Of a DNA stretch of 64,000 nt, positions 3,633-49,381 are shown piece by piece. Position 1 is the first letter of the stretch. Each line of letters opens with the position of its first letter. Under the pieces are notes generated by a model. It was not told where the DNA came from. It saw nothing but the letters and a program-made list of their open reading frames with translations, and made no database searches. A program made the translations under genes and the position numbers. Location: assembly GCA_000004985.1 (NCBI GenBank), contig GG738902.1; one strand, written 5' to 3'. The stretch is from Naegleria gruberi. Its lineage: Eukaryota.

Positions 3633-4145
3633 ATGGCCAAAAACAAGACTGCCAAATCTCAAACTCCTCAAGTGAAACCTCAAATCCAAAAGATTGAAAA
3701 ACAACATCAACAAATCAATAATGATTTGAATAAGCAATTGAAGAAGGAAAATTCCGAAAAGAAGAAGCAACATCAAACTTCCTCAGATGCTGCTTTAAAG
3801 AATCAAGAGAGCAAGCAAGTGTCTTCAACAGGTTCATCTCCAGAAAATATTAAGACAGAAGTTACTCCTTCCAATAATCAGGCAACATCAGATTTGTCTC
3901 CTTCTTCCGAGAGCAAATCAAATGATAAGAGGGAGAAAACAATGGAAAGAATTAGAAAGGTGGTAAAACAATTGAAGGAAGATCAAAAGAAGGAAGAAAA
4001 GAAATCAAAAGTTTTGAAAACTCCACTTATTGAAGAAATTAACGAATCGGAGGAGAAGGAATGTCAATCTTCTGAATCATCTTCAGAGAAGAAAGAAGAA
4101 AACGAACGAAATGACGCAGAAGCAAGTACTGTTGAATGTAAATAA
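3633..4145 (+). CDS. Hypothetical K/E/S-rich low-complexity protein
   Basis: 170-codon ORF with an ATG start and charged low-complexity composition. No recognisable domain. Confidence 0.5.
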   Translation: MAKNKTAKSQTPQVKPQIQKIEKQHQQINNDLNKQLKKENSEKKKQHQTSSDAALKNQESKQVSSTGSSPENIKTEVTPSNNQATSDLSPSSESKSNDKREKTMERIRKVVKQLKEDQKKEEKKSKVLKTPLIEEINESEEKECQSSESSSEKKEENERNDAEASTVECK

Positions 4146-5895: not shown

Positions 5896-8800
5896 ATGCC
5901 ACTACACCAAACTTTCATCTACACTGGGAAGCTACAACCAGACGAAACTAAACATACAACATTTCCAACAACAAGAACAATATCGCGGAATAGTCGAATT
6001 TCTTTCTCTTCATCAACTATAACCACAAATTTAATTATTTCAATTCTACTGCTAGCATTTATCACCTCTCTCATACAATCTCTATATTATCAGATAGTGT
6101 ATTCATCCAACAATGACAACAAACTTTATAGTCACACATTCTTTGTGAATGCTGCCACTACATGCTATGGTGTTGACAGCACGGATCCTAGTGTTTGCTC
6201 GGGTAATGGAAATTGTACCAGTAAGAATAATTGTGAGTGCAATGATGGATTTAGTGGAAACAAATGTCAAACAGAGACGGTGAAATGTTATGGTGTAGTA
6301 GATACTGATCCTACAGTATGTTCAGGTCATGGAAATTGCTCTAGTAAGAATAATTGTCTGTGTGATTCAGGGTACAGTGGTAACAAGTGTCAAACCTTTG
6401 ATGGTACTAGTTCGATATCGTGTTATGGAATCGATTCGACAGATAGTTCAGTTTGTAATTACAATGGTAATTGCACAGCAACGAATAATTGCGTTTGTAA
6501 TCAAGGATATAGTGGAAATCAGTGCCAAACATTGGATAGCTCTTTTAAATGTTATGGAGTTGACTCTACTGACGTTTCTGTTTGTAATGGAAATGGAAAT
6601 TGTACATCAACTAATAATTGTGTCTGCAAATCTGGTTACACTGGGAATCAATGTCAAAATGAAGATAGTTCATTTAAATGCTACGGGGTTGACTCGACAG
6701 ATATCTCTGTTTGTAGCGGAAATGGAAATTGTACAAGCTCAAACAATTGCGAATGCAAATCTGGTTATACTGGTAATCAATGTCAATCAATTGATAGCTC
6801 TTTCAAGTGTTATGGTGTTGATTCGATAGATATCTCTGTTTGCAATGGAAATGGTAATTGCACTAGTTCAAATAATTGTGTTTGTAAATCTGGTTACAGT
6901 GGAAATCAATGTCAAACCTATGATGGCGGTAATAGTGGTTCATTTAAATGCTATGGAGTTGATTCTAGTGATATCTCTGTTTGTAGTGGAAACGGTAACT
7001 GTACTTCTGCTAATAATTGTGAATGTAAGGCAGGTTATAGCGGCAATCAATGCCAAACCTTCTCTACCTCTTTTAAGTGTTATGGTGTTGATTCGACAGA
7101 TAGTTCAGTTTGTAATGGAAATGGCAATTGCACCTCCTCTAATAATTGCGAATGTAAATCTGGATACACAGGAAACCAATGTCAATCAATTGATAGCTCG
7201 TTCAAGTGTTATGGTGTTGATTCGATGGATGTCTCTGTTTGCAATGGAAATGGTAATTGCACTAGTTCAAACAACTGTGTTTGTAAATCTGGTTACAGTG
7301 GGAATCAATGTCAAAACAATGATGGCAGTAGCACCATTAAATGTTATGGTATTGATTCGACTGACCCATCAGTTTGCTCAGGTCATGGTATCTGTTCCTC
7401 AACCAACGACTGCCAATGTGAAAATGGTTACAGTGGAAATAAGTGTCAAACCTTTGCAAACGAAACATCTACTTTCAAATGTTATGGTGTAGATTCTTCG
7501 GATCCTACTGTTTGCTCTGGTAATGGAAACTGTACATCCACCAACAATTGCCAATGCCAATCAGGATTCAGTGGAAATAAGTGTCAAACTACAGTTAATT
7601 ATTGCTTTGGTTATGATGAAAATGATAACAATGTTTGTGGTGGTCCAGATCGAGGAAAATGTACATCTAACGATGTTTGTGAATGTAAGGGAAGCTACGT
7701 TGGTTACGATTGTGGTGCTTTTGTTTCAGACAAATCACTCATCAAAATAACCTCAAAATATTCAAAGATTCTAAGCACCAATACTGACATTAATTTCATA
7801 ACAATTAGTATTCCAAAGCTCACTAACAGCTACAAGGGAATTGAGAATAGACTCAAGAGTACTTTGGTGATTTTCAGCAGTAATGTTACTATTGATTATT
7901 CCACTACTGGAATGATTGAACAGTTTCAATTGTATAAGAACATGACACTTGGCGTCTACTCTCTCAATTTAACCATTGTTGATACTACTTATAACATTCA
8001 AGTTGCTGCTACTGTTGAGAGCTCAATATTTTCTATACTGACTCTTGAACAAACTACTCAAAGTGTGGATACCTTGACAGCAAAAGAAATTGCACAAGTT
8101 ACAAAGCAATTGAACCAAATTACAAACCAACAACAATTTATTTCTACTGTGGTTTCTACTTTGAAAGAGAATGTTAATAATTACACAATTGATGATGGTT
8201 TAGATTTGACTTCGTCACTATTAGATATTTCCAATGTCAAGTTGGATACTAAATCTAAACTGGGAATATCTGAAACCCTAAAATCATATGCTCAAAATAT
8301 GATCGAAAAGTTTGACAATTTCACAACAGAACAAGTCAAACCAGTTGCAATTAACATCGTTTCTGTTGCCTCAAATATTTTAAATCAATCTATATTTACT
8401 GAACCATCATCTAAATTTGTGGTTATCGGTAATTCTATTCAATCCGTTGAAAAGACACTTTCCCTTGTTACGATTGTTAATCCAACAGAAAATTTATCAA
8501 TTGAAACTTCGATGATTAAGGTTCTTCTCATTTCAAAATCAGAATACAAGAATTTACATACTATAGATAAGGATTATACTCTTAATCTTCCAGAATTGGG
8601 GTTTGAATATTCGTTTGGTTTGGTAAAATATGAAAATTACTTGACAGAAGATTTGCAAAACACAAGTTCAATTTCTGACATTTTGCAAGTGAGACCAATG
8701 TTGAATGGTGTTTTTAGCCCTCTCAGACATTTATCCACTCCATTCAATTTGACTTTCTCTATCAAACATTTCGGTGCGCCACCAAGTAATGAAACAGTTG

Positions 8801-40758: not shown

Positions 40759-41385
40759 ATGAACAAACGCTTAACACTTTTATCTTTGTTCTTGCTATGC
40801 TTGTTAATAAGCATGTCACTTGTTCAACATGTCAACTCTTCTCGACCAAACTGTGCTGAGCCTCTCAACACACAAAACTCTGGTTCTTCAGATTCGTTTG
40901 GAAGGAAAACTCTTCAAGCAGCTGATCAAGATGTCAAGTTGTTGAACAATAAAGAGGGCATAACCTCTCTTCTCATTGATAGTATGGCCAGAAATGCAAT
41001 GGCTCAATTATCTCCAAGTGTTTTCAATGGTGTTCTAGGCCCAACCAATAAGTACATTCCACTTGTTACATTTGAAGCACATGCAAATGCCAAATGTTAT
41101 GCATGTCAAGTGGATTGTTTGAAAAAGTGGAAAGGATTAACGGAGAGAGCTCTTTTCAAATCATGTAAATATAGATATTTCTATTATGGATGTGATAGAC
41201 CATGTTATGGAAGTCATACTGCTTCACAGAAGGATACTGCTGATATGATTGCTATTTGTTATGTTAGGAATAATTGCAGATTTGGAAATGTATTGCTTGA
41301 TTATGCTAAAAAGTATAAGAAGAAGGCAATGAGTTCTATTGTGTGGGATATTGGAACAGCTGCTCAAAATACTAGAGCTGATTAG
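40759..41385 (+). CDS. Secreted Cys-rich hypothetical protein
   Basis: The ORF-track start at 40753 is TTG. ATG 40759 gives the signal peptide MNKRLTLLSLFLLCLLISMSLVQHVNS. No recognised domain. Confidence 0.55.
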   Translation: MNKRLTLLSLFLLCLLISMSLVQHVNSSRPNCAEPLNTQNSGSSDSFGRKTLQAADQDVKLLNNKEGITSLLIDSMARNAMAQLSPSVFNGVLGPTNKYIPLVTFEAHANAKCYACQVDCLKKWKGLTERALFKSCKYRYFYYGCDRPCYGSHTASQKDTADMIAICYVRNNCRFGNVLLDYAKKYKKKAMSSIVWDIGTAAQNTRAD

Positions 41386-41575
41386 TTTTGATATTCTTTG
41401 ATTTCGAATAAATAGTTGGAAATGAATTTATTCTAATCTCTGTTCTGATACACGAATTATTTCGGTCAAATATTGAGAGTATAGGTGTGATAGTAGTTGA
41501 TTCTTTTCAAATATTGTTCATAATCCTTAAAGAAAATAGGAAACTGTTCCATGTAAAATTGTAATTGTTTCAAAA

Positions 41576-43992
41576 TTACTCAAACTCCCTTGTAAATATT
41601 CCAGAAAGATCTTGTTCTGATAAAAAGGAACTACTCTCCCAAAATAGTGGATTCTCAAATCCTGTAATACCAACAGACGAGTAGTCTTCTGGTTGAGTAG
41701 GTGTAACTTCAATATTCAGTTGTGTATTTAGTGGAATGTCAATAGGAGTAGGTTGTACACTCACAACACGTCTAACTCTTATCAGAGACAAGTATTGTTC
41801 CATGTCTGCAAGAAGGTCCTTAAAGAAAAGCTCAACAAACTTGTATCGTTTTTTCATCAAATTAAAAGCTCTCATATCCTTCTCAAGAATATCGAAATAA
41901 TCAATTCCGTTATATCTGAAATCTGTACTTTGGCTTGAAATTAGTGTTTTGACAATTTGTAAATGCACATTGGTTGCCTTGGCTACACAGACAAGAGTTT
42001 CTATAGGGAAGAGTGGAAACCAAGCATGTTGCGTTATTTCTGTAATTTCCAAAGCTGCCTTCTCCATAATATCCCTAACAGTTGGATTGTGTGATTTAGA
42101 TAGAATTGAAATTCTCAGTGAGTTTGCAATTAGAGTAAATATTGGATCAACTAGTTCTTCATACTCAGGTCCTACAATTCACTTGTTCAGATATTTGTTT
42201 TATAATGAAACTTACCATATGAAAAACATGCAAGAGCAGGACTCTTTGTTGGAGTGTCTATCAATCCTTTGGCCACCTTTTTGATATTCTCCACACACAT
42301 TTGGACAACACTCCAAATTTCAAAACAATTTTCACTATTAACTTCTCTAGTCACTACACCGATCCATTCCTCTGGAAATTTATCCATTGTAAAGAAGCTA
42401 TAAATATCAGGCAATCTTCTGAGGAATTCTTTCAAGTCCAAACGATTCAAATCATCTCCCAATACATTGTTAAAATAAAATACAAGATTTTCCAAATTTC
42501 TCTCACAGTCTGTCATAGTAGCTCTCTTCTCCTCGCCACTGAGTTGCGTCTTGACATAGTACTGGAGAATTTGCATGTAGAATTTTGCATTTTCGTATCT
42601 TCCAACCCAGCCTTCATACGAGGCCAAATTACCATAAGTTGCTGCAATATGATAGCTTTGAATTTGGTCAAACATTTTAGAAAGTGCCTTTTTGGCTCTT
42701 TGAGCTGTCTTTTCTGCTAGCTCAGCGAGTCCATATCTACATTCACACAATGCTCTCACCGATAAGAAGAGAGGGAACATTTCCTTCTTGTTGCTCTTTT
42801 CTCCTTCGATATCATTTGGTGTTGTAATGTAATTTTCCAATTCTTCCTTGCTCACCAATGGACATCCATCACATGCAATATCAAAATAAAAGTCAATCAC
42901 ATTTCTCTTACTGAGATGACCAACTTCTTCCACATTATCACTATCGGAATCACTATTTTTTTCTGCAATATTATTGTTGGTGGTTGAATGGTATGGTTTG
43001 AATTTTGGATCATTCGAAACTACACCATCCTTTGGTTTGAATGAGGTAACTCCTTTCTTTTTCTTTCTCTTCTTTTTTTCCTCAGTTCCCTTGATTGCAT
43101 TCCTCTTTGATTCTCTATAAATACATTCCACAGATCGTTGTGTACATGCTGTACAACATGGCAATTTCTTATCTGTAATATTATGGTGAATTTTAAAATC
43201 AACAAATAATAAAATACCTACCACTATTAAGGATTTAAAATTAAAATGTTATTTAGATTATTTACATACCATTTTCTATTAAATAGTTAATAATATGAAG
43301 ATTAAAAACACATACCGATGCTGCTTTCTACAAGGCTCACAGGCAATTGGAAAGAATTCAGTATTATCGTCTGTTGCAGCTGTTTGATTTGGTGAGCCAG
43401 TCTTTTCGTTACCTTCTGAACCATTACTACTGCTACTACTCGATTGGCCATTAATAACATTAGTTGATAAATTAATATTTTGATTTGGAATAAATCCTCT
43501 ATTATTATTTACAAAATTCAAATATTCTTGTTGTCTTTGTTGGAAAAGCAATCCGAAACTGTTTGGATTCATTCCTCCCAATAATTGTTGCTGCATTAAT
43601 ATTTGTTGAAGACTTGGATTGTGATTATTCATCATTAATTGTTGATTTACAGGATTCATTGCAGGTTGTTGATTATTTACAGAAGAAATCGATGGATCTT
43701 GAACAGTTTCCCAACCAGAAGCAGAATTTCCTAAAGACTTTCCGAGTGATGATAAAAATCCACCATTATTTCCACTACTTGTATTATCATTACCTAAATT
43801 TGAAAGGAAATTCATTGATGATCCACTATTACTATTATTCATCATCATCATATTATTCATCAATACATTATTCATCATCAACTGGTGCTGAGACGTTGCC
43901 GAATAGCTTTGATTATTACTATTCATTTCAAACGTTTGTTTGGTGTTGTTATTTGTTGGTTCCGAGTTGTCTTGATGATTTAACGGACGCAT
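41576..43992 (-). CDS. Zn2Cys6 (Gal4-type) binuclear-cluster transcription factor, five exons including 6-nt and 2-nt micro-exons
   Basis: Exons (minus strand): 43992..43316, 43275..43270 (AAAATG), 43223..43222 (TG), 43172..42216, 42171..41576. The total is 2238 nt, or 745 codons plus stop. Donors are GTATGT, GTATGT, GTAGGT and GTAAGT; all acceptors are AG. The spliced product reads ACEPCRKQHRKCDKKLPCCTACTQRSVECIY (C-x2-C-x6-C-x6-C-x2-C-x6-C). The last intron (42215..42172) joins ...CFSYG to PEYEELVDPIFTLIANSLRISIL. That junction is collinear with the plus-strand paralog. Confidence 0.75.
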
Positions 43993-44561
43993 TTTTTTCT
44001 TTTAGAATTTAAAATTTCCCGCTACAAAAATGTTAAACACTTCAAAATTGGAATTAAAATTTTGTAATATTGTACCAAATAAATATGTTTAATCAAATTC
44101 CATTCTTGTAATTCATATCCTTTTGTTGTACAGCTTCACCAAGTCAACCAATAGACAATATTTGAACGATTCCACTTATTTTTTTCTATCAGGAAAATGC
44201 TTGAACAGAATCCTCAAATAATGATGAAGGAATGAGATCATAAATGAGTTTGAAGAATTGTCTTTCCACTCAGTATCATCATGTTATCAATACTGAGATC
44301 AACATGCTTAGTAGAGGTGGAGAATAATAAAATTGAAATACCAGCAGCACTTTGGAGGACCTCCATTCGATTCTTGCTCCAATCGTGCTCTTTTTTGTCT
44401 CTTGTTCTCAATTATCAATGTGCGCTCAATTTCCGACGCAAGAATCAAAAAAAAAAAAGACGTTTTCCGTTCGCTCGTCCGTGATGCTTTAGAAACAAGC
44501 AACAGATAACAACACTGTAAAAAAGAAGAATTTGTGGCGTTTTGAGAAAGAGAAGGAAAGA
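43993..44561. promoter_or_regulatory. Shared divergent promoter region between the two Zn2Cys6 paralogs
   Basis: A 569-bp spacer separates start codons 43992 (minus) and 44562 (plus). It contains only short ORFs of no coding character. Confidence 0.4.
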
Positions 44562-47128
44562 ATGAATTCGTCATCAACATCACCACAACAGGCTCCTCCT
44601 CAAGGCTTTGGAAGTTTTCCTTCCTCCCCTAACAATAACATGTATACACAGCCTCAGCAACAACAATATTCTTCCTATAATAATAGTTTAAATAGTAGTA
44701 ATAGTACTAATAACAACATGATGATGATGAATAGTGTCCACCATCATCAGCCTCTTCCTTCATCTCCTTATAATCAACATCATCATGTGGCATCTCAATC
44801 AAACACCTCACAACAGCAACAGTATTATGATAATAACAATAATTATCAGGAATATAATAGACCACCGAATAATAATAACATGAATCATTCATCATCGATG
44901 AATAATGGTACGATGATTTCACTTCCTAGTCAAAATTCCTCCTATCAGACGTCACCATCACAATATGGCAACAGTAATAACAATAACTTTATTTATAATA
45001 TTCCACCACCATCCACACCACAGCAACCACCACCTCAACAAAATTATCATAATGGAATGCAAGGAATGAGTAGTAGTTCATATCAATTTGCGAATAGTAA
45101 TGGAATGCACAATAGAATGAATAATCAAAATGTGTCACCACCCATGAATCAACAACAAAATCTCGAATCAAGTCCAGAAGAAAATTCGTCATCACCAAAT
45201 GCTGAGCAATTGGGAAATTCGGATTTTCATCCCATCGCCTGTATAAATTGCAGAAAGCAACACAAACAATGGTAAGTTTAGTTATATTTGGAATTAAATC
45301 GATAACATTTTATAGTGGTAAGTATTAAATAAGAGAAATTGATTATTTAATGTTTCGGATATATAATTTAAACCTATCAGATAAGAAATTACCAAGTTGT
45401 CAACGATGTATTTCGAAAGGTATAACTTGTGAATATAAAACGCCTAGAAGAATGAGATATCCAAATCAGTCGAAACAAAAACAACAGCAACAGTCAACTG
45501 AGGAACAGCAACAATCAGAACCAAAGAAGAAGAAAAAGAAAACCGACTCGAAAGATAACCTAACACCAAAATCAAACTCTCCTCTCGATCCAGAAAATGT
45601 TTGTGCTCCAAATACAACTCTCACTAGCAGATTCCCTCAAACTCTCTCAAAAAAGAATATTATTGATATTTATTATAGCATGATATGCGATCACTTTATA
45701 TTTATTGAAAAACCAGTATTGGAAAAGTATATTCTTTCCAAGAGTAATAGTGAAGATGTGGATGATTCAGAATTACCACTCAAGAAGGAAATGCAGACAT
45801 TCTTCTTCTCTGTGACAGCACTAGTGGAACAACGTATGGGAATGGGAGATTTATCTGAAAAATCAGCAAAGAAGGCTAGAGATTGTCTTTCTAAACTTTT
45901 TGATGAAATGAATAACTTTGTAGTTGCCTGTTCGTATGCAAATTTGGGATCATATGAGATTGGATCAGGACGAGTCAAACTATCCAGGTTCTATTTCCAT
46001 AATGCCAAGTTTTACTTTGAAAGTTTGGACGATTCTGAAAAGTCAAGGTTATCAGAGCATGAAAAGGCTCTCCAAAAATACTTGACATCAGTGGAAATTG
46101 TAAATGCAGATAATGATCTAGGAATTTCAGCCATGATACATGACATGCCAAAAGTTTTTCATTTCACCACAGGACATCACTTACCTCAAGAAATTGTTAA
46201 AGCAACTCAACAAGAGGTCAGTCCTTCGAATTGTTTGGACTATCTCAAGATTGTGGAAATGATTGCCTCGTACTTGAACAAGTATTTCAGAGGTATGGCC
46301 ACTAAAACTAGAGGAGAAAAGGAAATGGAAATGTATGACAAGGGTAGTAATCTCTGCCAAGGTTTACTAATGAACGGATTACGTGTAGGTGTCTTGACTA
46401 AGGCAGGGTATGGCAAGGATCTTATTGAAGAGTCTTCTTTGAGAATTACGTATGCGTCCGAGAGTGAATTTTTTCCATTCCTTCCTGTTATTGTAATTCC
46501 ACACGTTGCTCTCGCTGCCCGTATTCACTTACAAATTGTAAAAAAGATTGAAAATGGTACCAGACAAAATCATCAGAAAGGGCTCACTTTCCAAAATACC
46601 GTTGGACCTATTGATTATTTTGATATTCTGGCAAAAGATTACAGATCACTCATTATTCTCTCTAAAAGATTTAAGAGAGTGTCGGTATGTTACGGTTCTC
46701 TCCTTGATGAAATTAAAGAGATTTTAGGTAGGAGAGTTGAAGCTCAGCAAAACAACGACACCACCTCGACAAATAACTCTAATACTGTTACTACCCCAAT
46801 TGCAGATGATGCACTCTTACAGCCACTTTCCTTAGACTCTTCCAGCCTGCCTCCACTGTCCTTCCTTCTAGGTTCTATGAATGATAATCCTTCACTACCT
46901 CAATCTTCAAGCTCTCAAAAATCAACCCTTGATGGATATGCTTCCAACAATTTACAACAAAGCATTTTCAATTCAATAATTCAATCTCCAATCAAATCAC
47001 CCTCACAACAACAAGAGTTGTACTTTGCTGATCCATTCTTTACACACGAAGATTTACAACAAATATTTTCTCCACATACGTATGGCGATTTTGAGGATGT
47101 ATCAGAATATAGTTTTAATGTGAAATAA
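44562..47128 (+). CDS. Zn2Cys6 (Gal4-type) binuclear-cluster transcription factor, three exons including a 2-nt micro-exon
   Basis: Exons: 44562..45271, 45316..45317 (TG), 45381..47128. The total is 2460 nt, or 819 codons plus stop. The ORF-track start at 44532 is TTG. Both donors are GTAAGT (45272 and 45318). Acceptors are TTTTATAG (ends 45315) and CCTATCAG (ends 45380). The product reads ACINCRKQHKQCDKKLPSCQRCISKGITCEY. The N-terminus is Q/N-rich and the C-terminal region is collinear with the minus-strand paralog. Confidence 0.8.
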
Positions 47129-47154
47129 ATTAGTTCCTTTCCCATATAATATCT

Positions 47155-47493
47155 CTATTGTTCTTCCACGTATTTGGCTACATATTCAGGATAGCATGGC
47201 AATCTATCTCCTAGCATAACGTGGTGATTACCAGTTTGAGTTTCAGCTGTTGGTTCAAAGACTGGTTCCAAAGGCTTTTCCACAAATACTTCGTGATCTT
47301 TCTTAACTGGTAATTCTTCCTTCTTTTCTTCAACAACTGGTGTTTCTGTAATTGTTTCTTCCTTCTTTTCTTCAACTGGTGCTTCTACAACTTGAGTAGT
47401 TTCCACAGAAATTGGTGGTACTTGTTCAATTGAACAAATAAATGGAATTGTTTCTTGAATTAACTTTTTACAATTTTCAACTTGATAATTCAA
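47155..47493 (-). CDS. E/K/P/V-rich ORF without an ATG, probably the displaced 3' end of the upstream ankyrin/coiled-coil gene
   Basis: The 112-codon ORF starts at TTG. It has coding-like internal repeats (PVEEKKEETITETPVVEEKKEELPV). It overlaps the preceding ORF by 17 nt in a frame offset by +1. I found no canonical intron that joins them. Confidence 0.35.
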   Translation of the reverse strand: MNYQVENCKKLIQETIPFICSIEQVPPISVETTQVVEAPVEEKKEETITETPVVEEKKEELPVKKDHEVFVEKPLEPVFEPTAETQTGNHHVMLGDRLPCYPEYVAKYVEEQ

Positions 47494-49381
47494 TCAGGTA
47501 AATTCCAATTTGAACTTTTTTAGGAATAAATTGTTGTAATTCAACAGTTTCGTTTCCAAGGCTCTCCATGATTTTTCTTAATAATTCATAAATTTCAATA
47601 ATTTCACTTAATTCATCCTTATTTAACAATTGAATGTCAGTTAAATATTCTTGATTCAAATATGTTTTGATAAATTCATCCAATACTATTAACTTCTCTT
47701 CCAATTCTTGAATATATTTGGTCAATTTCATTAAAAAATTCTCCGATTTAATGCTTTCTACCATACAAGTCATGTTTAACTTTAGTTCATCAACTTGTGA
47801 ACTTTCTTGTTCAAGTTTCAATTCATTAGCATGTTCAAAACAATTCTTTAACTTTTCACAAATTTCCAAATATTCTTTTTGAAATTCATTTTCTAATACA
47901 GTACATAAAACCTTAATTGCATTGATTTGTGAATTGGATTGAGTTTCTTCTTGTCTTTCAATATTTGTTTCTTGTGTTTCGTCTTGTTCTTTAATATTTT
48001 CGTCTTGTTTTTCGAGAGTTTCTTGATTTTCATCATGTTTTTCCTCTTGTTGTTCGAGAGTTTCTTGGTTTTCATCATGTTTTTCAAGTGGTTCTTGTTT
48101 TTCAAGAATTTCTTTCTTAATTTTATCTTTTTCAACTTTTTCATTCAATTCCTTCTTAATTTTGGAAATTTCCTTTCCGTTGACTTTCCATAAATTGTTA
48201 ATTTTAATATTTGGTGATTGAAGTAATAATTTAACAATTTCTAAACGTCCTTTTTCACATGCAATATGTAATGGAGACTAATAAATATTTAAAAATGTTG
48301 TAATTATTATTACTTACTTCCTATTATGGTAATGTTTAAAATAAGTATTAAATACAAACCATCTAAATAATAATGTAAAATATTTTAAATATTTAATTCT
48401 TACATGCTACGAGGAAATAATTAATAAATTAATTATTAATTTACATACTTCCTAAAATAGATAAATAATTTAATTGGTTAATTACTCACTTTCTAATAAC
48501 AAAGTTGGCAAATTAATTTCAATATTTAATAATACTAACTTCCTATTAAAAAAATTAATATTAAATATTAAAAATACTAACAATCTAAAAAAATGTAAAT
48601 ATTTAAAATTGTTTAAAAACTTACAACTCTCTAAAACAAATATACACGTAATTTAATTAGTAGAGACTTACTTGCTAATAAAAATATTAATTTAAGATTA
48701 TATTACTTAAATTACATACTTCCTAATAAGGAACTTGTTCATAAATAAAGAATTTAATACTTACTCCCTAATAATATTAACATTAAATAGTTATAAGTGA
48801 AATACTAACTTTCTAATAAATTATTTTATAAATAACTAAGTATTAAATACTTACATGCTAATAAAATGCTAATTTAATACAAAATTACCAAATTTAGAAT
48901 ACTTACATACTAAAAATAGTATTATTTTTATATTTTTTAATATTAAATTACTTACAGTCTGAAAATATTATTATTACAATGCTAGCAACACTTACAAACT
49001 AATAGCATTAAATATAAATAATTAATTATTCAATTCCTTACATACTAATTAATTATTTAGTATTTTACAATATTTCCTTAAATACTTACTTTCTACAATC
49101 ATACCCATTTAGATCTTATTAAACAATTGATATTCTACTCACATACTACTCAATTTTAAATATTTATAATGTTAATATTAAATAGTACTTACTCCCTTAT
49201 TCACATCAAGTCCTCCACAATTCAACAATAACTTGACAATTTCCAAATGTCCCCTCTCACAAGCCATGTACAACAATGTCTTATTCCGATCAGATTCATT
49301 TACCTTCGTTGGCTTGAAATACTTTTTAAACTCGGCAACGTTTCCACTATTTGCAGCATCTACAAGATGAGGAGAGAGCAT
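47477..49381 (-). CDS. Ankyrin-repeat plus acidic coiled-coil protein; exon 1 49381..49193, long exon 48277..47477, separated by the mini-intron/micro-exon array
   Basis: Exon 1 reads MLSPHLVDAANSGNVAEFKKYF...TLLYMACERGHLEIVKLLLNCGGLDVNKG and ends in phase 0 before GTAAGT. The exon from 48277 reads SPLHIACEKGRLEIVKLLLQSPNIKINNLWKVNGKEISK..., continuous with ORF 48148..47477. The M of that track entry is a TTG codon. Confidence 0.7.
48278..49192 (-). other. Array of 20 mini-introns (37-50 nt) separated by 19 micro-exons (18 of 3 nt, one of 6 nt)
   Basis: Micro-exons on the minus strand: 49145-49143 TAT; 49092-49090 AAA; 49044-49042 TAT; 48998-48996 TTT; 48958-48956 ACT; 48909-48907 TAT; 48857-48855 CAT; 48812-48810 AAA; 48767-48765 GGA; 48722-48720 GAA; 48674-48672 CAA; 48630-48625 AGAGTT; 48584-48582 ATT; 48542-48540 GAA; 48492-48490 AAA; 48451-48449 GAA; 48406-48404 CAT; 48362-48360 ATG; 48320-48318 GAA. 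Each is preceded by (T/A-rich)AG. Each is followed by GTAAGT (10 times; 11 counting the exon-1 donor), GTTAGT (3), GTATGT (2), GTGAGT (2), GTAAGG, GTAAGA or GTTTGT. Intron lengths sum to 855 nt and exon lengths to 60 nt, matching the 915-nt span. Confidence 0.7.

Follow-up and report, generated by a model that had tools for sequence, protein, structure and literature searches.

Can the codon of a zinc-binding cysteine be put together from exons of only 6 and 2 nucleotides (nt)? This question is raised by a minus-strand gene located at 41576-43992 of a 64,000-nt stretch of the Naegleria gruberi contig GG738902.1 (assembly GCA_000004985.1), hereafter called the window. A preliminary description of this DNA had proposed that the Zn2Cys6 (Gal4-type) zinc cluster encoded by the gene is interrupted by a 143-nt gap and that two micro-exons, AAAATG and TG, must be retrieved from this gap. 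This gene model is very probably right: among the paths that strict splice sites allow through the gap, a single one restores the canonical cysteine spacing, and its product can be aligned without any gap with orthologues whose genes are uninterrupted at this place.

Structure of the gene and of its predicted product

The model comprises five exons on the minus strand (coordinates are those of the window; carets mark splice boundaries here and below; Cys3 is the third cysteine of the cluster):

43316-43992, minus strand: exon 1, 677 nt, with the ATG at 43992 and the 3' end ...TGT AGA AAG CAG CAT CG
43276-43315, minus strand: intron 1, 40 nt, GTATGT...AATAG, donor G at 43315, phase 2 in an Arg codon (CG^A)
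43270-43275, minus strand: 6-nt micro-exon AAAATG, in the context AATAG^AAAATG^GTATGT
43224-43269, minus strand: intron 2, 46 nt, GTATGT...TAATAG, phase 2 in the Cys3 codon (TG^T)
43222-43223, minus strand: 2-nt micro-exon TG, in the context TAATAG^TG^GTAGGT, third base of the Cys3 codon and first base of an Asp codon
43173-43221, minus strand: intron 3, 49 nt, GTAGGT...TTACAG, phase 1 in the Asp codon (G^AT)
42216-43172, minus strand: exon 4, 957 nt, starting AT AAG AAA TTG CCA TGT TGT (context ATTACAG^ATAAGAAATTGCCATGTTGT)
42172-42215, minus strand: intron 4, 44 nt, GTAAGT...TTGTAG, without counterpart in the orthologues
41576-42171, minus strand: exon 5, 596 nt including the TAA stop

Exon 1 codes for an N/Q-rich N-terminus and for the first two cysteines of the cluster. 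The micro-exon AAAATG finishes the Arg codon, codes for Lys and gives the first two bases of Cys3, and exon 4 codes for the remaining part of the cluster, a lysine-rich stretch and most of a conserved C-terminal domain. The five exons (677 + 6 + 2 + 957 + 596 = 2238 nt) give 745 amino acids without the stop, including ...ACEPCRKQHRKCDKKLPCCTACTQRSVECIY..., and the mRNA predicted across the micro-exons reads CAT CGA AAA TGT GAT AAG (spliced junction string CAGCATCGAAAATGTGATAAGAAATTGCC). The cysteine pattern of the product is C-EP-C-RKQHRK-C-DKKLP(C)-C-TA-C-TQRSVE-C. On re-reading the minus strand, the sequence strings and coordinates of the preliminary description, its intron lengths of 40, 46 and 49 nt and its five-exon total of 2238 nt all prove correct.

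The gene would thus encode a functional Zn2Cys6 protein whose Arg, Lys, Cys3 and Asp codons are interrupted by a trio of very short GT-AG introns of U2 type, and splicing to CAT CGA AAA TGT GAT AAG would regain the third zinc-ligand cysteine. Zn2Cys6 clusters bind two zinc ions as well as DNA (CGG half-sites). The predicted protein has the canonical spacing of six cysteines, a Pfam score above the cut-off and a basic stretch after the cluster.

The donors (GTATGT, GTATGT and GTAGGT) and acceptors (TAG, TAG and CAG) of introns 1-3 are all intact in the genomic DNA, and the flanking open reading frames (ORFs) of 677, 957 and 596 nt are uninterrupted despite a guanine-plus-cytosine (GC) content of 33%. 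The published figures for N. gruberi are 33% GC, 1.7 exons per gene and a mean intron of 203 bp (PMC8296547). Other well-supported short introns of the window measure 44 and 56 nt, so that such a size is normal here. A scan of 41000-47500 against Rfam gave no match, and hence no structured RNA in the gap.

Orthologues and deposited models

Orthologues of the minus-strand gene were found in N. lovaniensis (P0003, on contig L001), on an N. fowleri-like Logan contig (P0004, on L003) and as a metagenome protein (P0002, on L002). All three genes have an uninterrupted ORF through the zinc cluster, coding for H-R-[KR]-C-[DS]-[KR], and the spliced N. gruberi product aligns with the three proteins without gap. 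For example, the genomic CAC CGA AAA TGT of N. fowleri faces CAT CGA AAA TGT in the predicted N. gruberi mRNA. AAAATG is unbroken coding sequence in N. fowleri and N. lovaniensis, as well as in two other members of the family, L009 and L010. This gap-free match is the strongest argument that AAAATG and TG would both be present in the mature mRNA. The product of exon 4 can also be aligned with the three orthologues, and the junction created by the removal of intron 4 (...CFSYG^PEYEE...) is aligned to continuous ORFs.

The spliced protein also matches a deposited "predicted protein [Naegleria gruberi]", P0001, which includes HRKCDKKLPCC, i.e., both micro-exons. The sole difference between P0001 and the model given above is the loss of 21 low-complexity residues from exon 1, which is otherwise identical. 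P0001 takes out a 63-nt "intron" at 43832-43894 (minus strand; GTCTCA...AATAG) in the N/M/Q-rich part of this exon. This segment has a weak donor, a length that is a multiple of three and no stop, and the preliminary description kept it as coding.

A look-up of P0001 on contigs returned no record, and therefore no strain or transcript copy of the micro-exon region. One metagenome contig, L011 (metagenome ERZ929261, run ERR1078381, PRJEB11402), holds a copy of exon 5: its positions 1-1923 share 97.7% DNA identity with 42373-40475 of the window, and it ends about 800 nt short of the micro-exon region.

Is the path through both micro-exons special?

The possible paths across the 143-nt gap were enumerated with consensus donors (GTWDGT) and YAG acceptors. 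Four paths are obtained, which include both micro-exons, the 6-nt one only, TG only or neither. Two of them (both micro-exons, or TG only) stay in frame, and only the first gives the canonical spacing C-X2-C-X6-C-X5/6-C-X2-C-X6-C. In the same way, its product agrees with the Zn2Cys6 definition C-X2-C-X6-C-X5-12-C-X2-C-X6-8-C, whereas the products lacking either micro-exon do not. The proposal that both are needed for the Cys3 of the cluster is upheld by this spacing and by the gap-free alignment with the orthologues. So is the companion claim about omission: dropping the 6-nt exon keeps the frame and loses Lys-Cys, and dropping TG or both exons breaks the frame.

The Pfam scores follow the same order. 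With the cut-off of Zn_clus (PF00172) at 21 bits, the product with both micro-exons scores 35.4 bits, the one with TG only 19.6 bits and the best single-intron alternative 14.5 bits; the deposited P0001 scores 31.6 bits.

Composition-preserving shuffles were searched for a path with consensus donors and YAG acceptors restoring the cysteine spacing. An equally good path was offered by 1 of 20,000 shuffles for the minus-strand gap, 33 of 20,000 for the corresponding gap of a plus-strand paralogue and 34 of 20,000 for another family member, L007 (both described below). Chance is therefore a poor explanation of the micro-exon path. The strict donor pattern leaves out GTGAGT, so that this test is uninformative for a further relative, L005, which uses such a donor. 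An open frame had been considered as a criterion and was dropped in favour of strict sites combined with cysteine spacing, as 124 of the 826 loose GT/GC..AG paths stay open. Furthermore, just two occurrences of the 11-mer TAGTGGTADGT exist in the 64 kb of the window, each at a 2-nt exon, for 0.05 occurrences expected.

The plus-strand paralogue

The second of these two occurrences belongs to a paralogue on the plus strand:

44562-45271, plus strand: exon 1, ending ...AAA CAA TG
45272-45315, plus strand: intron 1, 44 nt, GTAAGT...TTATAG (TG^T)
45316-45317, plus strand: 2-nt micro-exon TG; Zn_clus score of 42.8 bits with TG included
45318-45380, plus strand: intron 2, 63 nt, GTAAGT...TATCAG (G^AT)
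45381-47128, plus strand: exon 3, from AT AAG AAA TTA CCA ... to the stop

As the preliminary description had stated, the 2-nt exon is common to the two genes. In the paralogue, CAA TG^gtaagt(44 nt)tatag^TG^gtaagt(63 nt)atcag^ATAAG is interrupted at the same two codon positions, and the predicted spliced junction is AAACAATGTGATAAGAAATTACC. The deposited protein P0005 (558 amino acids) starts only at MRYPN, within exon 3, and is devoid of a zinc cluster. The three-exon model gives 819 amino acids and regains a canonical Zn2Cys6 domain; P0005 thus seems to be a truncated model, owing to a failure to detect the 2-nt exon.

The two N. gruberi genes lie head to head, about 570 nt apart (41576-47128 of the window). 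In N. lovaniensis (L001 3117-8133) and N. fowleri (L004 6001-10802), the two corresponding genes are in tandem on the same strand, between calpain and Sec7 genes. As gene order differs between species, one copy has been inverted or rearranged.

Distribution of introns and micro-exons in the family

A neighbour-joining tree of the family separates two clades, each with full bootstrap support. Clade A contains the plus-strand paralogue, the upstream genes of N. lovaniensis and N. fowleri and L005, a gene from an environmental Naegleria-like organism. Clade B contains the minus-strand gene, L002 and the downstream genes of N. lovaniensis and N. fowleri. L007 groups with clade A and L009 with clade B (100/100), and L008 and L010 fall outside both clades. 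The introns of the Cys3 region are distributed as follows, the count of positions starting at the first base of the His codon:

Position 5 (CG^A or AG^A): minus-strand gene, L009 (45 nt) and L010 (104 nt)
Position 6 (after His-Lys): N. fowleri A-type gene
Position 11 (TG^T of Cys3): minus-strand gene, plus-strand paralogue and L007
Position 13 (G^AY of Asp): minus-strand gene, plus-strand paralogue, L007 and L008
Position 18 (after Cys-Asp-Lys): N. fowleri and N. lovaniensis A-type genes
Positions 20 and 27 (on either side of ATTACCT): L005
No intron: the other three B-type Naegleria genes

Three genes, namely the minus-strand gene, its plus-strand paralogue and L007, thus conserve the composite site TAG^TG^GTADGT. 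The latter is about 45% identical to the paralogue, and the TG path is its only consensus path. The introns around the TG exon have diverged in the three genes, their similarity being not above chance (all p > 0.2). In the same way, pairwise comparisons of six N. gruberi introns are all at chance level and reveal no shared intron or repeat family. An introner family or a recent gene conversion was considered as the source of the shared positions and rejected, the N. gruberi introns being unrelated in sequence.

Other A-type genes have micro-exons of their own at this spot. The N. fowleri gene (NCBI FDP41_010721, protein P0006) contains a 12-nt micro-exon, CAATGCGATAAG, coding for QCDK at L003 3961-3972. 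The annotation reads CRKMHK^KLPSC, skipping this exon and thus lacking Cys3 (L003 3893-4159, equivalent to L004 from about 6705). The junction is CATAAGCAATGCGATAAGAAACTC with the 12-nt exon versus CATAAGAAACTC as annotated, and the Zn_clus score is 36.9 bits versus 17.4 bits; P0006 is likely to be a misannotation. L005 (7804-7887, identical in L006) requires a micro-exon of 7 nt, ATTACCT (7844-7850), flanked by introns of 40 nt (GTATGT..CACAAG) and 37 nt (GTGAGT..GTATAG), and its product reads CRSMHKQCNRRLPSCDRC. Across the family, micro-exons of 2, 2, 2+6, 7 (L005) and 12 nt (N. fowleri) are therefore found at the Cys3 spot, and their inclusion always restores a canonical cluster.

The two introns flanking the N. 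fowleri micro-exon resemble each other. The upstream one (68 nt, L003 3893-3960) is collinear with the first 55 nt or so of the downstream one (3973-4028), with a local score of 33 against a null of 18.4±2.9 (p about 0.001, an optimistic value as the resemblance had been noticed by eye beforehand). Orthologous introns of N. fowleri and N. lovaniensis have no residual similarity (p = 0.74). This suggests that the donor-proximal part of an intron was recently duplicated locally, which would have made a new intron 12 nt upstream and, with it, the 12-nt exon.

How could such exons be spliced, and are they always used?

Very short introns are recognised across the intron (intron definition), so that tiny exons between them need no exon definition. 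Introns 1-3 of the minus-strand gene, which are far shorter than any unit of exon definition, are most likely recognised in this way, so that the micro-exons would never have to be defined as exons. Just 2 nt separate the AG of intron 2 from the GT of intron 3; both sites are therefore probably not occupied together, and the removal of the two introns is probably sequential. If intron 2 were removed first, intron 3 would have an ordinary 5' splice-site context (...AAAATGTG^GTAGGT). If intron 3 were removed first, intron 2 would be followed by an ordinary 3' exon (AATAG^TGATAAG). Either order would thus give a normal second substrate. The signals, the uniqueness of the path, the gap-free match to the orthologues and the shared intron positions can be read from the sequences, whereas the splicing of the mRNA as modelled, the way in which its splice sites are recognised and the order in which its introns leave are inferences, the last two drawn from what is generally known of splicing.

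Several points weigh against this model. The 2-nt exon places a 3' and a 5' splice site within each other's footprints, which is unusual. Of the three introns located at TG^T, two lack a branch-point-like YTNAY motif; such a motif is found in most of these short introns and is non-discriminating in AT-rich sequence. No transcript-derived copy of the gene was found in the protein collection searched, and the deposited model P0001 may have been fitted to homology and hence would not be independent evidence. Lastly, skipping of the 6-nt exon stays in frame, so that an isoform without Cys3 is possible.

The possible fitting of P0001 to homology and the lack of RNA evidence found for the gene are also what would be expected if the zinc cluster were broken. 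The gene would then be a pseudogene or carry a decayed domain, the micro-exon model would be an over-fit driven by homology, of the kind made by protein-guided gene predictors, and the real transcript would retain introns or follow a simpler path. The 124 of 826 loose paths that hold the frame open point in the same direction. However, an ORF of more than 2.2 kb is intact in AT-rich DNA, all six splice sites fit the consensus and reading through intron 1 meets a stop (after ...CRKQHRYVFLIFILLTI). Furthermore, the identical TG arrangement is kept in two other genes whose introns have fully diverged, and shuffles almost never yield such a path. A broken cluster is thus very improbable.

The in-frame skipping of the 6-nt exon raises another possibility, that the micro-exons are used in a regulated or leaky way. 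Besides the full product, the gene would give an isoform CRKQHR-DKKLPCC (mRNA CATCGTGATAAG) without Cys3 and dead for DNA binding. Skipping of TG would lead to frameshifted, unproductive transcripts, and the intron cluster would act as a splicing switch on the DNA-binding domain. The TG-only path has indeed the same consensus sites and an open frame, the analogous 12-nt exon of N. fowleri is also in frame if skipped, and every A-type gene examined keeps at least one intron in the short Cys3 region. However, the skipped product falls under the Pfam cut-off (19.6 bits for 21) and has no counterpart among the 45 homologues inspected. The B-type orthologues are intronless here, so that a switch is not needed for function. 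Regulated or leaky use therefore seems rather unlikely.

Evolution of the intron cluster

The preliminary description saw in the 6-nt exon a further subdivision of what is a single exon end in the paralogue. The direction of this change is probably the reverse, as the position of intron 1 (phase 2, CG^A or AG^A followed by AAA TGT) is also found in L009 and L010; it is more likely that this position is old and was lost in the plus-strand copy. All three intron positions of the minus-strand gene are common to other family members, and this copy is therefore best read as retaining an old intron cluster. Most relatives would then have lost the old introns or have introns a few bases away.

The idea that the 2-nt exon predates the duplication may hold. 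In its favour, A-type as well as B-type genes carry TG, and the outlying L008 also has the intron after TGT G. On the other hand, the TG exon is absent from all the other B-type genes examined (L002, N. lovaniensis, N. fowleri and L009). An origin older than the A/B duplication is plausible. Intron sequences give no dating signal, the pairwise comparisons all being at chance.

The 97.7% identity of L011 to the window indicates that the metagenome that yielded L007 and L009 includes a close relative of N. gruberi NEG-M. Both genes may thus represent extra paralogues in an N. gruberi-like genome, and all the known carriers of the TG exon could belong to one lineage. For this reason, it was judged unsafe to take L007 and L009 for orthologues from a remote organism, and this reading was rejected. 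An old gene conversion or transfer between paralogues, or a parallel gain, are alternatives for the source of the shared TG exon.

A broader scenario can be put forward as a tentative one, possible but rather doubtful. The ancestral gene would already have had the 6-nt and 2-nt exons (positions 5, 11 and 13), and later wholesale loss of these introns or their rebuilding nearby would have led to the 7-nt and 12-nt exons, at least one of them by local duplication of the 5' part of the neighbouring intron. If true, this would be a natural demonstration that there is no effective lower limit of exon size for an intron-defining spliceosome and that new introns bud from adjacent ones.

Protein family and other features of the window

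Besides Zn_clus, no Pfam family was found at E<=1 in P0001, P0002, P0003 and P0005, including the fungal middle region (Fungal_trans, PF04082 or PF11951). The C-terminal domain of about 450 residues (41576-43172, minus strand, and 45381-47128, plus strand) has no Pfam family match. Its family comprises at least 223 representative clusters at E<=1e-3, 81 of them at <=1e-10, and many of its members have N/Q-rich tails. It appears to be an expansion of Naegleria or heterolobosean type. Among the papers listed by a literature search on Zn2Cys6 or zinc-cluster proteins of Naegleria, none mentioned this genus.

The Cys3 spot appears as a hotspot of tiny exons across this Naegleria gene family, with several misannotated public models. 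As such exons defeat gene predictors (P0005 lacks its DNA-binding domain and P0006 its Cys3), counts of Naegleria transcription factors are probably too low.

The scan for bridging introns also brought up a long ORF at 6580-7571 (plus strand) of the window, in which a motif (...TCT GTTTGTAA/G ... GGTTACAG TGG...) is repeated every 130-170 nt or so. It resembles a tandemly repeated cysteine-rich module, not introns.

Comparison with known systems

The predicted proteins resemble Gal4-type Zn2Cys6 factors (PF00172) in their cysteine spacing and basic stretch and differ from them in the C-terminal domain, which is not Fungal_trans. With regard to splicing, the 143-nt gap and its three introns would offer a compact system for the use and order of splice sites 2 nt apart.

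The closeness of these sites recalls the recursive splice sites of Drosophila and vertebrates, where a 3' site nearly abuts a 5' site (YAG^..^GTAAGT) and removal is stepwise. However, recursive sites contribute no nucleotide to the mRNA and serve to break up introns of great length (review PMC13149111), whereas the minus-strand gene would keep 2 coding nt and its introns (46 and 49 nt) are among the shortest of the genome. The stwintrons of fungi likewise consist of U2 introns that are closely packed or abut and are spliced out in consecutive reactions. In a stwintron, a splice signal of the external intron is interrupted by the internal one, whereas the Naegleria signals are intact and coding bases lie between the introns. 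Intron birth by duplication of an existing donor region has been proposed in fungi (PMC7138796, PMC5587772), and the similarity between the two introns of N. fowleri is of this kind.

Sub-codon exons are a great rarity. The literature searched yielded no report of natural exons of 2 nt, nor of any Naegleria micro-exon, and as far as it goes validated sub-codon exons are known only from plants, with 1 nt. Those of APC11 and VPS55 were validated by RNA sequencing and reverse transcription PCR (Guo & Liu 2015; Yu et al. 2022, PMC8831610). Like the Naegleria exon as modelled, they are constitutive sub-codon coding exons with canonical GT-AG flanks, needed for the frame and for a conserved domain, conserved in homologues, merged into one exon in intronless relatives and often missed by annotation. 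Unlike them, the predicted Naegleria exon measures 2 nt, stands beside a 6-nt micro-exon and is associated with introns of 40-63 nt, and its host, a heterolobosean protist, has some 0.7 introns per gene. A conserved 2-nt exon beside a 6-nt exon in an intron-poor excavate would thus carry the phenomenon from plants to a very distant eukaryotic lineage.

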